DNA of 64,000 nucleotides from NCBI GenBank assembly GCA_041649555.1, contig JBAZMS010000001.1:119219-183218 (forward strand), in the 5' to 3' direction. Shown one piece after another: positions 1 to 53,296 of the stretch. Origin of the DNA: Candidatus Micrarchaeia archaeon. GTDB lineage: Archaea; Micrarchaeota; Micrarchaeia; Anstonellales; Bilamarchaeaceae. Numbering within the stretch: position 1 is the first letter of the stretch; each line of letters begins with the position of its first letter. The notes under the pieces are model-generated. The model was not told where the DNA came from. It ran no database searches and saw only the letters and a list, made by a program, of their open reading frames with translations. A program made the translations under genes and the position numbers.

Positions 1-1661
1 TTGCAATAAACAAGAGCGATTGCGCAAAAAAAAGCAAATTAATAATAGATGAAAAAAAACTTCAAGAGGAATTCGGAATTCCATTTGTCAAAATCTCTGC
101 AAAAAATCAAACAGGAATAAATGAACTGCTAAAACAAATAATTCAATCTTCAAAAAAACCTCTTTCTTTTAAAATTCCAGATGAGATAAAAAACAGGGAG
201 TTTATACAATTTGAAAAAGAAATCAGGCCATTTGCCAGGTCCCTTAACATTCCCTCGAAATGGCTTGCCTTAAAATTAATCGAAAAAGATAGTTTTGCCA
301 TAGGACTTGCAGAAAATTCAAAGAAAGGAAAACAAATAACTGCTAAAGCATCGCTTGTCGGGCAAAATATTGAAAGTTCCCTCAAATCTGATATCGGATC
401 GCATATCGCAAAAAAAAGATACTGTTTTTTAAAAAAAATTTCAGAGAAATCAATAAAATATGCAGAAAATCGAAAAGAATTTAATGCTGACAAATTTATT
501 TTAAACCCATTTGCAGGCATACCCATCTTTATACTTATATTATGGCTGACTTTTCAGCTTACATTTATACTTTCAGCTCCATTTTCAGATCTAATTGATG
601 AATTTTTTATTAATTTGGGGGAATTTTTAGGTGCATACCTTCAAAATATCGGGGTATCCGGATGGGCTATTTCATTGCTCCAGAATGGAATAATTGCAGG
701 AGTTGGAGGAATTTTAATTTTCACCCCTACAATCATCATTTTATTCATTTTATTATATACTCTTGAAGATTCAGGGTATATGGCCAGAGTTGCGGTAATT
801 CTAGATGGCATTGCAAGAAAAACAGGGCTTTCCGGAAAGTCGTTTATTCCGCTGATTCTTGGTTTTGGATGCAATGTTCCTGCAATAATGTCTGCAAGAA
901 TATTGGATAAAAAAGAGGACAGGCTTACAACGATGATTTTAATCCCCTTCATGTCTTGTGCTGCGCGTCTTCCTGTTTATCTTATTTTTATAGGGGTTTT
1001 TTTTAGCCAAAATCAGGGCCTTATTTTGCTTTTATTATATCTTCTTGGAATAATTCTTGCAATTATAACTTCATTCTTGCTTAGAAAATTTATTTTCAAA
1101 TCAGAATCCGGGGAATTATTGATAGAGCTTCCAAAATATCATTTTCCATCATGGAAGGTGGTTTTAATGCAGGCAAAACACCAAACATTTGCATTTATTT
1201 ACCGGGCAGGAACAATAATTCTTGTTGCAAGTATTTTTATGTGGTTTTTATCAAGCCTGCCTTACGGGGTTGAATATGGTTCAAAGGAAAGCATTAGCGG
1301 AATAATAGGGGGCGCAATTGCACCTGTTTTAGAGCCCCTCGGGTTTGGGACATGGCAGGCATCAGTTTCATTAATATTCGGGTTTGTAGCAAAAGAAGTT
1401 GTAGTAAGTTCAATGCTTACCTCATATGGGGTGGGAGAGGAAGGCTTGACCTCTGTTCTTAAAGAAGATTTTACAACTCTCTCAGCTATTTCATTTATGG
1501 TGTTTGTTTTGCTTTATGTTCCCTGCATTGCAGTTATCGGAACATTGAAAAGAGAAACAAACAGCTGGAAAATAACGCTTGGAGCAACGATATATTATAT
1601 CGCAGTTGCATGGATCATTTCGTTTTTAGTATTTCAAATAGGGTTATTCTTAGGTTATTAG
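1..1661 (+). CDS. feoB: Ferrous iron transporter FeoB, C-terminal part (5' end lies outside the window)
   Basis: Frame 3 is open from nt 3. The translation runs ...KISAKNQTGINELLKQI (end of the G domain), then permease segments GGILIFTPTIIILFILLYTLEDSGYMARVA and GFGCNVPAIMSAR typical of FeoB. The tracked ORF 615..1661 is only the portion after an internal TTG. Confidence 0.9.
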   Translation, partial: AINKSDCAKKSKLIIDEKKLQEEFGIPFVKISAKNQTGINELLKQIIQSSKKPLSFKIPDEIKNREFIQFEKEIRPFARSLNIPSKWLALKLIEKDSFAIGLAENSKKGKQITAKASLVGQNIESSLKSDIGSHIAKKRYCFLKKISEKSIKYAENRKEFNADKFILNPFAGIPIFILILWLTFQLTFILSAPFSDLIDEFFINLGEFLGAYLQNIGVSGWAISLLQNGIIAGVGGILIFTPTIIILFILLYTLEDSGYMARVAVILDGIARKTGLSGKSFIPLILGFGCNVPAIMSARILDKKEDRLTTMILIPFMSCAARLPVYLIFIGVFFSQNQGLILLLLYLLGIILAIITSFLLRKFIFKSESGELLIELPKYHFPSWKVVLMQAKHQTFAFIYRAGTIILVASIFMWFLSSLPYGVEYGSKESISGIIGGAIAPVLEPLGFGTWQASVSLIFGFVAKEVVVSSMLTSYGVGEEGLTSVLKEDFTTLSAISFMVFVLLYVPCIAVIGTLKRETNSWKITLGATIYYIAVAWIISFLVFQIGLFLGY

Positions 1662-49566: not shown

Positions 49567-50097
49567 TTTTTTTCCCTTCCATTCTGCCTCATCTATTCTT
49601 TTCTTATAATTGGCCCACCTTGCGCAAACAAATAAAAAATCAGACAGTCTATTGAGGTATGCCGGAATTTCTTTTCGTATTCTTTCTTTTTTTGAAAGAG
49701 TTGAAACCCTTCGCTCAGCTCTTCTTGAAACTGTTCTTGCAAAATGAAGTATTGATGACCCGATTGTTTTTCCAGGGATTATAAAATGATTCAAAGGAGG
49801 CATTTCTTTTTCATAACCATCTATCCATTCTTCAAGCCGTTTTATTTCAATTTGGGTTATTTTTTTATAATTTTTTCCTCCTGAAAGTTCTACGCCCATA
49901 ATAAATAATTCTTTTTGAATCTCTTCGATTTGTTTTTTTATTTGCATTTCATCTATTTTGCATCTTACAAGCCCGAGTATCGCATTTAATTCATCAATTG
50001 TTCCATAAGCTTCAACTGCCAAATCGTCTTTGTATACTTCTTTTCCATCGAGAAGGGATGTTTTTCCTCCATCTCCCCTTTTTGTGTAAACAGGCAT
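49558..50097 (-). CDS. ATP:cob(I)alamin adenosyltransferase, PduO/MMAB type
   Basis: N-terminus VYTKRGDGGKTSLLDGKEVYKDDLAVEAYGTIDELNAILG, about 180 aa. Confidence 0.85.
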   Translation of the reverse strand: MPVYTKRGDGGKTSLLDGKEVYKDDLAVEAYGTIDELNAILGLVRCKIDEMQIKKQIEEIQKELFIMGVELSGGKNYKKITQIEIKRLEEWIDGYEKEMPPLNHFIIPGKTIGSSILHFARTVSRRAERRVSTLSKKERIRKEIPAYLNRLSDFLFVCARWANYKKRIDEAEWKGKKLI

Positions 50098-50160
50098 AAA
50101 GAAATATTTGAATTAAAATTAATAAACTTGCCGTTCTTTTAATGATTCTGCAAATTCTTT

Positions 50161-50545
50161 AACCCAAGTCCAATACAAGATTATAAAAGGGCCATATCAA
50201 ACAATAGAAAATTATTCTCCTAATTTCTTTCAAGTTGTATTAGTCTTTTTGTTTTGGGGTGACCACTTAGACCTTTTAACCCAAGTCCAATACAAGATTA
50301 TAAAAGGGCCATATCAAACAATAGAAAGTTGTTATCCTAATTTCTTTCAAGTTGTATTAGTCTTTTTGTTTTGGGGTGACCACTTAGACCTTTTAACCCA
50401 AGTCCAATACAAGATTATAACAGGGCCATATCAAACAATAGAAAGTTGTTATCCTAATTTCTTTCAAGTTGTATTAGTCTTTTTGTTTTGGGGTGACCAC
50501 TTAGACCTTTTAACCCAAGTCCAATACAAGATTATAAAAGGGCTA
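50161..50545. repeat. Tandem direct repeat, 117-bp unit x 3.3 copies
   Basis: Unit starts (AACCCAAGTCCAATACAAG...) at 50161, 50278, 50395 and 50512, an exact 117-nt period. Copies 2 and 3 differ at one position (AAAAGGG vs AACAGGG). Copy 1 differs in an 8-nt patch. The fourth copy is truncated after 34 nt, next to the RNase P RNA 3' end. Confidence 0.95.
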
Positions 50546-50546
50546 G

Positions 50547-50758
50547 TGATGGGAAGCATAGTCTGCCTTCTGTGTGGTTAGGCAACATTCGACTAAGCGG
50601 CGCAAAGGCCTTGCATACCACAGGCAATTCAAAAGCCGTTTCATCCTCAGAGAGGTAATCGTTTCTGTTCTTTTGAATCCGCCCTTAAGGCGTTGCCTGC
50701 ATAAAGGTATGGGCAGAACTTCCTCAGAAGAACTCCGTGAGTTGCCTGCTTCCCATCA
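50547..50758 (-). ncRNA. rnpB: RNase P RNA, unusually compact (about 212 nt)
   Basis: On the minus strand, the P1 5' strand UGAUGGGAAGC pairs with GCUUCCCAUCA, and the P2 strand AGGCAAC pairs with GUUGCCU. A P3 hairpin is present. A CR-I-like GAGGAAGUUCUGCCCAUACC compares with bacterial GAGGAAAGUCCGGGCUCCAUAGG. A CR-V-like ACAGAAGGCAGACUAU-P1' compares with ACAGAACCCGGCUUAU-P1'. P4 forms as UCUGCC/GGCAGA. P5 forms as CAUACC/GGUAUG, with nested helices between its strands. Confidence 0.75.
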
Positions 50759-50777
50759 ATATAATTACTCCTTCAGA

Positions 50778-50790
50778 CTTTTAAATTATT
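50778..50790 (-). promoter_or_regulatory. TATA-like box for the RNase P RNA gene
   Basis: Minus-strand AATAATTTAAAAG is centred about 25 nt upstream of the predicted 5' end (50758). Confidence 0.35.
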
Positions 50791-50870
50791 TCTATTGGAT
50801 ATTCATATTCTTATCCTTATATAAAAAATCACTTTTTAAATGTTTTCAAATAATCTTATCTTGATTAACA

Positions 50871-52235
50871 ATGCACATCTGCAATGAGGATATATTGGAT
50901 TTAATACAACAAGGAAAAACAAATGAACTAGTTAAATTAGGAAGCAGAGTAGTAAAACCCATGATATCATTATTATCACATTCAAGTATGAAAGTTAGAA
51001 ATGGATGTATCGAAGCACTAGCAGAAATAGCGAAAACAGATGAGACCACATTTCAAAGACTAATTGAGGAATTAAACACTCCACGCTTAAACGTTGAACA
51101 ATATATACATGTCAAAAGAGGTTGCATATATGCGTTGGGCCTGGTAGGTGATAAAAGAGCGGCAAAATCTTTGATAATATCTCTTTTACACGGTTCAGAT
51201 GATATTAGAAAAGCCTGTGCAGAAGCATTAGGTTCAATAGGAAATCAAAAAGCAGTGAGTGCATTATTAATACACGCATCGTCAAATCGCTATTTTGACA
51301 TCAGACAAGCATGTGTGATGGCATTAATACATATAGGGAAAAAAGATAGGCACAGTTCCTATGAATTAATTAATGAATTGAATACCAATAGTTCTCTTAG
51401 TATAAAATCTATCTGCGCACGAGTATTAGGGATGATAGGAGAACGCAGGGCAGTAGATGCATTAATAGAAGGATTAAAAAATTCAGATGAGAATGTCCGG
51501 ATATCATGTGAAAAATCTTTAATATTAATAGCAAAGTCTAATGAGAAGACCTTCCAGAGACTAATTAAAGAATTGAAAACCAATCGAAATCGTAAAATTA
51601 AAGAAACCTGTGCAGATGCGCTGGGAATAATAGGGGATAAAAGGGCCGTGGACGTTTTGATAGAATCACTGGATGATTTTTATCGTTTTAGTAGGGAAGC
51701 CGAAGTAACAGTGATAAATGCATTGGGTTTAATAGGGGATCCCAAAGCAGTTACGCCCTTAATAAGAATATTGAAAAGAGATATAAAGAAGACCTCACCG
51801 AACAGCCAGAAGAAAGCCAATAAAGCATTGGTAAACATAGCAAAATTGGATAAAGTTACTTTCTATCTATTAATTAGTGGATTGTTGCCAATAGGAAAAA
51901 ACAATACAGAAGATTGTATAGGAATATTAACGGAAAACACAGATGAAAAAGGATCATGTTTTATAAAAATAATCTGTGAAAGGAGTGAAGAATGTGCATT
52001 AGAAATAGGAATGGAAAAAACCTTGGCAACCATCAAAGAATACATAGGATTCATAAAAGATTATTATACCAAAGAAGAACTAAAAGAAATCCAAATCAGG
52101 TTATATTCCTTCTACAGAAAAACATTTGAAGAAGAATCTAGTTCAAGAATAAAAATGGATTTACCTAAACTAGAGATAAAACCACCAAAGAGAGGCCCTG
52201 AAATATGTGCCAAATTATTGAGGGTAGGATCATGA
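50871..52235 (+). CDS. HEAT-repeat (PBS-lyase type) paralogue A, 454 aa
   Basis: Has the family N-module ...DILDLIQQGKTNELVKLG, multiple ALGxIGDxRAVxxLI/DxxVRxxC repeats, and the family C-module ...GMEKTLATIKEYIGFIKDYYTKEELKEIQIRLYSFYRKTFE...MDLPKLEIKPPKRGPEICAKLLRVGS. Confidence 0.8.
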   Translation: MHICNEDILDLIQQGKTNELVKLGSRVVKPMISLLSHSSMKVRNGCIEALAEIAKTDETTFQRLIEELNTPRLNVEQYIHVKRGCIYALGLVGDKRAAKSLIISLLHGSDDIRKACAEALGSIGNQKAVSALLIHASSNRYFDIRQACVMALIHIGKKDRHSSYELINELNTNSSLSIKSICARVLGMIGERRAVDALIEGLKNSDENVRISCEKSLILIAKSNEKTFQRLIKELKTNRNRKIKETCADALGIIGDKRAVDVLIESLDDFYRFSREAEVTVINALGLIGDPKAVTPLIRILKRDIKKTSPNSQKKANKALVNIAKLDKVTFYLLISGLLPIGKNNTEDCIGILTENTDEKGSCFIKIICERSEECALEIGMEKTLATIKEYIGFIKDYYTKEELKEIQIRLYSFYRKTFEEESSSRIKMDLPKLEIKPPKRGPEICAKLLRVGS

Positions 52236-53296
52236 TTACAAAAGAAGAAGTATTAAAATTAATACAACAAGGAAAAACTGAAGAACTAGTTGCTCTAGGT
52301 CCAGAAGCATATGATACTCTTTTCAGGGGGCTTGCAAATGAATTTCCATCAAGAAGATCTACTTGTTGCAGGGCATTAGTAGAAATTGCCAAAAAAGACC
52401 AAGATGTTTTTGAAAGGTTAATGTCAGATACTTCAGGAAATTATAGTTATACCTCTGTACAACTTAGGATCAAAAAATGCCATCTGTGGATCTTAGGCGA
52501 AGTTGGCGACACTAGAGTAGTCCCATACCTTTTCTCTTTTCTGGACCGTTCGCCCCATGAGTTTGAGGAGAGTATCTCTATTGCACTGGCAAAAATAGCA
52601 AGAACAAACGAAGAAACCTTCCAACGCTTAATTAATGAAATCCTGCATATTAAAGACCGGAAGATAAAAGCTCAATGCAGTTGTATCAGGGCATTATGTT
52701 TATTGAAGGATTCCAGGACATCAGAAGTATTGATCAAGACATTTTCAAGTTCTTTTGATTCTGCTGTTCTAGGCTTATGTGAAAAAACATTGGCAGAAAT
52801 AGCAAAAACAGATGAAAATACTTTAGAACTCTTGATTCAGACATTAAAAAATAATTTAGATCCGAATGTTAAGTTTCACTGTGCAATGGCATTAGGAACC
52901 ACAAACAGAGCAGATTTAATCGATATATTAGTGACTATGTCATTTATAGACAAAGATCTAGATCTTAAGTTTGCATGCACAAGAGCTTTGGGAAATATAA
53001 AAGATCCAAGGGGTCTTGCTTTCAAGAAAGTTATCTATGACAAAGACAAAGATTATGCATTAAAGATGGGAATAGAAAAAACCAGAGCAACCATAAAAGA
53101 ATATCTAGAACTTATAAAAAATTATTATTCTAAAGAAAGGGTAGGTGCGATTAAAATTGAATTACATTCCTTTTTTAGAGAGGTATTTGAAAAGGCAACA
53201 GACTTGAAGCCATGTATGGATTTACCTGAACTAAAGATAAAACCACCAAAGAGAGGCCCTGAAATATGTGCCAGATTAATGACGGTAAGAGTATGA
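52232..53296 (+). CDS. HEAT-repeat paralogue B, 354 aa
   Basis: ATGA overlap with A. Starts MITKEEVLKLIQQGKTEELVALG and ends MDLPELKIKPPKRGPEICARLMTVRV. The start is set to MITK by analogy with paralogues D and F. Confidence 0.8.
   Translation: MITKEEVLKLIQQGKTEELVALGPEAYDTLFRGLANEFPSRRSTCCRALVEIAKKDQDVFERLMSDTSGNYSYTSVQLRIKKCHLWILGEVGDTRVVPYLFSFLDRSPHEFEESISIALAKIARTNEETFQRLINEILHIKDRKIKAQCSCIRALCLLKDSRTSEVLIKTFSSSFDSAVLGLCEKTLAEIAKTDENTLELLIQTLKNNLDPNVKFHCAMALGTTNRADLIDILVTMSFIDKDLDLKFACTRALGNIKDPRGLAFKKVIYDKDKDYALKMGIEKTRATIKEYLELIKNYYSKERVGAIKIELHSFFREVFEKATDLKPCMDLPELKIKPPKRGPEICARLMTVRV

Follow-up and report, generated by a model that had tools for sequence, protein, structure and literature searches.

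A compact, type M-like RNase P RNA gene with a minimal P12 in a Micrarchaeota archaeon

The window, a 64-kb stretch of DNA from a Micrarchaeota (DPANN) archaeon, carries a gene for RNase P RNA on its minus strand between positions 50547 and 50758. The Rfam model of archaeal RNase P RNA, RF00373, matches 50548-50757 on this strand with 91.1 bits (E = 6e-24), which is above its gathering cut-off of 84 bits, and the alignment is not truncated, spanning model positions 1-288. RF00373 is the sole Rfam family above threshold in the window. A permissive Rfam search of 50050-50900 returned nothing except RNase P, and with ARAGORN no tRNA or tmRNA gene was detected in the 64 kb. Additionally, a covariance model of our own, R1, matches 50547-50757 at 202.7 bits. 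An initial annotation of this DNA had proposed a small RNase P RNA on the minus strand, and both parts of that proposal are confirmed, the RNA measuring about 210 nt compared with the 288 positions of the Rfam consensus. The proposal also holds up at the level of the genome (1.09 Mb, 6 contigs, estimated to be 90.5% complete), where the archaeal Rfam model gives a single match and no second copy of the RNA was found.

The features of the locus are listed below. Positions in the RNA are converted to window coordinates by subtracting them from 50758.

50778..50786, minus strand: TATA box ATTTAAAAG (TTTAAAA at 50779-50785), read from the sequence and putative as a promoter element, centred about 25 nt upstream of G50757
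50547..50758, minus strand: RNase P RNA gene, mature RNA of about 210-212 nt
50748..50757 with 50548-50557 (RNA 1-10 / 201-210), minus strand: P1; 10/10 pairs compensatory, 97% paired
50741..50747 with 50580-50586 (RNA 11-17 / 172-178), minus strand: P2, AGGCAAC/GUUGCCU, 7 bp; 7/7 pairs compensatory, 96% paired
50725..50737 (RNA 21-33), minus strand: P3 hairpin, 5 bp with a UUC loop; 4/5 pairs covary, 94% paired
50712..50725 (RNA 33-46), minus strand: CR-I (GAGGAAGUUCUGCCC) and the 5' strand of P4, with a bulged U at 50717 (U41)
50706..50711 with 50614-50619 (RNA 47-52 / 139-144), minus strand: P5, CAUACC/GGUAUG; 3/4 modelled pairs covary
RNA 53-57, minus strand: J5/7, 5 nt
50620..50700, minus strand: specificity domain, made up of P7, P9, P10/11, CR-II, P12 and CR-III
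50694-50700 with 50620-50626 (RNA 58-64 / 132-138), minus strand: P7, 7 bp; 62% paired, weak support
50680-50692 (RNA 66-78), minus strand: P9, a branching hairpin of 5 bp; 93.5% paired, every pair covaries
50670-50678 with 50627-50635 (RNA 80-88 / 123-131), minus strand: P10/11, 9 bp; 86.7% paired, every pair covaries
50659-50669 (RNA 89-99), minus strand: CR-II, ACAGAAACGA; nearly invariant in 30 relatives
50645-50655 (RNA 103-113), minus strand: minimal P12, 4 bp with a UCU loop
50636-50644 (RNA 114-122), minus strand: CR-III, GAUGAAACGG; nearly invariant in 30 relatives
50611..50613 (RNA 145-147), minus strand: L5-15 linker CAA, candidate 'A anchor'; A146 and A147 invariant in 30 sequences
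50599..50610 (RNA 148-159), minus strand: P15, 3-bp hairpin GGC CUUUGC GCC with a 6-nt loop; 3/3 pairs covary, 99% paired
within 50558..50598 (RNA 160-171), minus strand: J15/2 (CR-IV, GCUUAGUCGAAU); invariant or near-invariant columns
within 50558..50598 (RNA 185-198), minus strand: CR-V and the 3' strand of P4, ACAGAAGGCAGACUAU; invariant or near-invariant columns, P4 covariation
50536..50539, minus strand: T4 run, a likely archaeal terminator, 8-11 nt past the end of P1

Of 41 relatives belonging to the same family and order, 34 have a homologue of the RNA, and Rfam matches occur in 81 of 99 genomes of the family. In one congener (G002), the same RNA gene adjoins the same neighbour gene. 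The comparative figures given above come from 30 sequences taken from the homologues in the 34 relatives and aligned to a covariance model, which was built from the reading of the window RNA structure and does not contain the P4 pseudoknot. An alignment made in this way is fitted to the nested helices and therefore favours them, while P4 and an RNAalifold prediction are free of that bias. P4 (AGU-U-CUGCC/GGCAGACU, with the bulged U) has 99% of its cells paired, and six of its eight pairs covary. When 12 short forms were simply aligned with MAFFT, RNAalifold recovered P1, P2, P5, P9, P10/11, P12 and P15 unprompted, with compensatory changes in 34 of 48 pairs. In the full set of 30 sequences, 90.0% of cells pair, a share that falls to 39-45% once the partners are shifted by 1-3 columns. 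Changes on both sides are found in 57 of 61 pairs, the P4 pseudoknot included, and none of 500 shuffles reached the observed pairing values. The low value for P7 probably reflects misalignment of sequences that possess P8 or insertions. The RNA also folds more stably than expected, with a z-score of -3.2 and no dinucleotide shuffle out of 200 folding as well. Together, the RF00373 score, the fold z-score and the strong covariation indicate that these elements lie beyond chance.

The helices and conserved regions that had been read from the sequence, namely P1 of 11 bp, P2 of 7 bp, the P3 hairpin, CR-I, CR-V, P4 and P5, were all found where the initial annotation had placed them, and P1, P2 and P4 are supported by covariation among the 30 sequences. 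P1 consists of GAUGGGAAGC paired with GCUUCCCAUC and is extended to 11 bp by U50758-A50547. CR-I GAGGAA and the U-C of P4 (U41, C42) are invariant in 30 of 30 sequences. The RNA retains P1-P5, P7, P9, P10/11, the five conserved regions, the bulged P4 uridine and the CAA linker, and in the alignment of 30 sequences it has kept every universally conserved nucleotide.

The small size of the RNA results from the loss of peripheral elements. In the Rfam alignment the P8 columns are deleted, and P7 runs straight into P9. Only 5 nt are inserted at P12 where the consensus has 47, and CR-II and CR-III are separated by 16 nt that form the 4-bp stem with its UCU loop. At P15-P17, 6 nt stand in place of the 39 in the RF00373 model, leaving no L15, P16, P17 or P6. 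The catalytic domain, with these four elements missing and a short P3, accounts for about half of the size reduction. A strongly reduced specificity domain had been proposed, with only three nested helices remaining between the strands of P5. The count of helices proved to be too low, as this region contains P7 (7 bp), the branching P9, P10/11 (9 bp) and P12 (4 bp) along with intact CR-II and CR-III. The reduction itself is real in that P8 is absent and P12 is minimal; however, the module of CR-II and CR-III, which are inferred to fold into interleaved T-loops, has been kept. The specificity domain is thus shortened but not gutted.

Some of these losses are shared across the lineage. The P15 region is 10-19 nt long in 27 of 29 sequences across the order, which makes the type M-like catalytic domain a lineage trait. 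P12 falls into two size classes. The long class (37-59 nt, with GA-rich, K-turn-like motifs) comprises 13 sequences, and the short class (14-24 nt) comprises 16, namely 13 of 15 from the family of the window genome and three from the families f2, f6 and f10.

Transcription probably starts at or beside G50757, from the gene's own TATA promoter, with the T-run shortly after P1 as its probable end point, as judged from sequence motifs. An A/T-rich, TATA-like motif was seen by eye about 25-30 nt upstream in most of 27 relatives, and T-runs follow the RNase P RNA gene in both congeners. Three metatranscriptome runs from lake water each contain one short contig, 90-95% alike, that covers 50550-50730. 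Two of the three stop at about 50550, whereas a contig from groundwater DNA continues. The RNA-library contigs are Logan assemblies from a close relative and are uninformative on strand, level and exact ends, and they provide a weak hint of the expression and the 3' end of that relative's RNA. The groundwater DNA run (X2) yielded an identical contig of 495 nt, which starts inside a repeat at 50452. No contig aligned to 50289-50450, a gap that is no evidence of absence.

This repeat lies at 50158-50543, directly 3' of the RNase P RNA, and consists of 3.3 tandem copies of a 117-bp unit with 98% identity. Every unit opens with the T-run located 3' of the RNA gene. The repeat is absent from the congener G002, in which the gene for the same neighbour, a PduO-type adenosyltransferase, follows the RNA within about 35 nt, and no further copy was found in the genome. 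It has no Rfam match, and neither strand folds significantly (z = +1.3 and -0.1). A duplicated RNA 3' end, which would be a signature of integration, was not found in the window. Further along the plus strand, at 50871-53296, an array of genes for HEAT-repeat proteins (Pfam HEAT_2, HEAT_PBS) begins.

The genome also encodes the proteins expected of an archaeal RNase P holoenzyme. Pop5 (96 aa, 46.5 bits), Rpp21 (36.8 bits), Rpp29 (57 bits) and L7Ae (99.6 bits) were identified. The candidate for Rpp30 is a protein of 149 aa that scores 14.7 bits against a Pfam cut-off of 35 (PF01876), and standard annotation would therefore miss it. Its gene (L033:1279-1728; G000 contig 2, 258317-258763) is located directly downstream of rpl15e, which is the conserved position in archaea. 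A word-index protein search returned two close proteins only, but an exhaustive HMMER search found 83 homologues, among which forms of about 150 aa are common, and 41 of 48 aligned homologues match PF01876. The AlphaFold model of the protein has a pLDDT of 97.5, and its top seven matches in the PDB are all archaeal Rpp30, including the chain from the Methanocaldococcus jannaschii holoenzyme. Based on the homologues, the synteny with rpl15e and the predicted fold, the gene encodes a shortened Rpp30; its counterparts in M. jannaschii and P. aerophilum have 232 and 180 aa, respectively (PMC13462272). The holoenzyme set of Pop5, Rpp30, Rpp21 and Rpp29 is thus complete. HARP, the protein-only RNase P, was not found in the 90.5%-complete genome with either the Pfam model or the protein of a relative, so the RNase P described here is probably the only one in the cell and would presumably be essential.

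Three types of archaeal RNase P RNA, A, M and T, have been distinguished (PMC13462272, 2026). The defining feature of type M is the loss of L15, P16, P17, P6 and usually P8 (PMC3579882). The absence of P8 is typical, with variants in the Archaeoglobaceae that keep it. Like the type M RNAs of Methanocaldococcus, Methanococcus and Archaeoglobus fulgidus (6K0A/6K0B, PMC6565675), the window RNA has a P15 that ends in a small hairpin, here of 12 nt between the CAA linker and J15/2, and it lacks the four P15-P17 region elements as well as P8. P1-P5, P7, P9, P10/11, P12, CR-I to CR-V and the 3-nt L5-15 linker with its central A are shared with type M, and the same four specific proteins are encoded. 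In contrast, the window RNA does not possess the P12.1/P12.2 extension with the K-turn, which is bound by L7Ae in M. jannaschii and in most archaea. Its P3 has only 5 bp, and its Rpp30 is well short of the M. jannaschii protein (PMC13462272). As of 2012, type M had been reported from the Methanococcales and Archaeoglobus genera of the Euryarchaeota (PMC3579882). Since the host of the window RNA is instead a member of the Micrarchaeota, the resemblance is probably convergent, in which case the type M deletion set arose again in a DPANN lineage.

The other two types differ more strongly. Type T, found in the Thermoproteaceae (Rfam RNaseP-T; PMC3579882, PMC13462272), is likewise radically shortened and is accompanied by shortened Pop5 and Rpp30. 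However, type T keeps L15, P16, P17 and P6 and loses most of the specificity domain, including CR-II and P10-P12, and it has a P2 of 3 bp, a 2-nt linker between P5 and P15, and no Rpp21. The window RNA shows the opposite pattern, having lost the P15-P17 region while keeping CR-II, CR-III and P10-P12, with a 7-bp P2, a 3-nt linker (CAA) and an encoded Rpp21. A Pyrobaculum-type (type T) identity was rejected on the basis of the P2, the linker, CR-II with P10-P12, and Rpp21, and the suggested likeness to the smallest known forms does not extend to kind, as the Pyrobaculum type T is devoid of the specificity domain. With type A, represented by the RF00373 consensus, the window RNA shares the Rfam family, the core, the conserved regions and the protein set, but it falls about 80 nt short of the 288-position consensus and lacks P8, P6, P16, P17 and the long P12.

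According to a recent study, P6, P16, P17 and P8 have been lost independently in several lineages of archaea, and P12.1/P12.2 are segments that were added on (PMC12974513, 2026). A word search of its main text gives no mention of the Micrarchaeota or DPANN, and the section concerned does not describe the combination of deletions seen in the window RNA. Since independent peripheral losses are already known, the architecture represents a new combination of known changes rather than a new principle. The gene itself is an expected housekeeping gene that Rfam-based annotation would find here, and its value is comparative. It shows that the P12 K-turn arm, where L7Ae usually docks, can be lost from an archaeal RNase P RNA that still keeps both of its putative tRNA anchors and all four dedicated proteins.

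Overall, the gene is a functional-looking, single-copy gene for a compact, type M-like RNA with a minimal P12. The probability that 50547-50758 is a functional gene for the catalytic RNA of a ribonucleoprotein (RNP) RNase P is put at about 0.93, and catalysis on pre-tRNA is predicted from the sequence. The RNA of about 210 nt adopts the universal P1-P4 pseudoknot fold, whose core contains the active site and the bulged U in P4. By analogy with the M. jannaschii holoenzyme, this core would perform catalysis, and pre-tRNA would be held at two points. One anchor would be formed by CR-II and CR-III, whose interleaved T-loops would stack on the elbow of the tRNA, as they do in M. jannaschii, and the other by the CAA linker that joins P5 to P15, whose central A would stack on the first base pair of the acceptor stem. 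This 'A anchor' role of the linker is taken from the M. jannaschii cryo-EM structure (PMC6565675). Pop5 and the shortened Rpp30 would bind the catalytic domain, and Rpp21 and Rpp29 the specificity domain. Because the RNA lacks P8, L15/P16/P17/P6 and the K-turn extension of P12, base pairing with the 3'-CCA of the tRNA and docking of L7Ae on P12 are both unlikely.

It could be argued that L7Ae is nevertheless a subunit, recruited through Rpp21 or a non-canonical kink, and that the enzyme works like type M despite its short P12. L7Ae is encoded in the genome, it touches Rpp21 directly in M. jannaschii (PMC6565675), and in type T the K-turn sits elsewhere in the RNA (PMC13462272). However, the presence of L7Ae is uninformative, since the ribosome and the box C/D RNPs require it. 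The P12.1/P12.2 extension that bears the K-turn is absent, P12 being reduced to 4 bp and a 3-nt loop. By inspection, the other helices are continuous Watson-Crick helices in which no 3-nt bulge with tandem G-A pairs occurs. Retention of L7Ae as a subunit is therefore considered improbable, and the missing P12 extension, together with the inspection of the helices of the window RNA, points to an enzyme that would be independent of L7Ae.

Two further readings would deny the gene its function altogether. The plus-strand ORFs 50249-50581 and 50574-50864 would make the region protein-coding, and both frames are open in this genome. However, neither has a Pfam match, 50249-50581 crosses the 117-bp tandem repeat that the congener does not have, on the strand opposite the RNA all three frames are interrupted by stops in 23 of 30 relatives, and the substitution pattern at the locus is that of a paired RNA. 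The ORFs had already been taken as spurious, and the chance that they are real genes is negligible. The RNA might instead be a decaying relic whose shrinkage reflects relaxed selection, HARP or an unknown enzyme having taken over the processing of tRNA 5' ends. Such a replacement would fit a lineage in which 89 of 99 family genomes encode HARP and four genera seem to have lost the RNP. In this genome and in either congener, however, HARP was not found, while all four RNase P proteins are intact and the universally conserved nucleotides are all retained. Moreover, compensatory changes maintain the helices, and they are seen even between the two congeners with 210-nt RNAs. Decay is thus very unlikely, if somewhat less so than a protein-coding region, and the locus is better explained as a working RNase P RNA gene.

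The distribution of the two kinds of RNase P within the family is a more surprising and more interesting lead than the RNA gene. HARP is found in the family with scores of 139-191 bits, whereas in the genus of the window genome (three genomes) the RNP is present and HARP was not found in any of the three. At the other extreme are 12 genomes from four genera, estimated to be 67-93% complete, in which only HARP was detected. These are G014 and G089-G095 in g13 (8 genomes), G015 and G114 in g14 (2), G018 in g17 and G019 in g18, and all 12 encode a full-length HARP (PF08745, 146-178 bits; for example the loci L042-L045). RNase P RNA was not found in the 12 at E <= 1e-5, with an 18-bit partial match in G018 only. 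The short-form model R1 likewise gave no RNase P RNA in five genomes of g13, g14 and g18, a result that carries weight only together with the missing proteins. Rpp29 and Pop5 were not found in any of the 12, nor was Rpp30 with a family-specific profile, and for Rpp21 one sub-threshold match of 17 bits was the sole exception. Control genomes of the same family do contain the RNP components. The 12 are metagenome-assembled genomes and, as kin, are not independent of each other, but five unlinked genes are unlikely to have gone missing together through an accident of assembly.

This pattern contradicts the earlier statements that no DPANN archaeon has HARP and that archaea with HARP always possess the RNP proteins as well (PMC6380272, 2019). 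A later mining of more than one million genomes, published in 2025, also lists no DPANN order among the carriers of HARP (PMC12153264). One interpretation, for and against which the odds appear about even, is that the family is part-way through a replacement of its RNase P. The RNP would then be the only enzyme in the genus of the window genome, with its 210-nt RNA devoid of a K-turn and its 149-aa Rpp30, while most genera would have both the RNP and HARP, and the four genera with the 12 genomes would have HARP only. If this is true, the window RNA would belong to a minimal, L7Ae-independent RNP that suffices alone, and the HARP-only genera would represent the first report of archaea that lack all components of the RNase P RNP. 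A single family with RNP-only, dual and apparently HARP-only members would provide a natural experiment in the replacement of a ribozyme, and the survey bears on the question of why two unrelated designs of RNase P coexist.

The survey also has a consequence for annotation. Among the 81 family genomes with an Rfam match to RNase P RNA, only 30 reach the gathering score, so most RNase P RNA genes of the family have probably been left unannotated by Rfam-based procedures. A lineage-specific covariance model would correct this.

The RNase P RNAs of the relatives vary in other respects. The smallest is 191 nt. The congener G001 (L021 1208-1470) has two additions, one of about 40 nt that separates the 3' strand of P2 from CR-V and one of about 11 nt that follows P5. 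G011 and G012 (L027, L030) have about 45 nt extra after P15, and G017 (L028) has more than 100 nt extra before CR-V. These four genomes carry added helices at unusual sites of the RNA.
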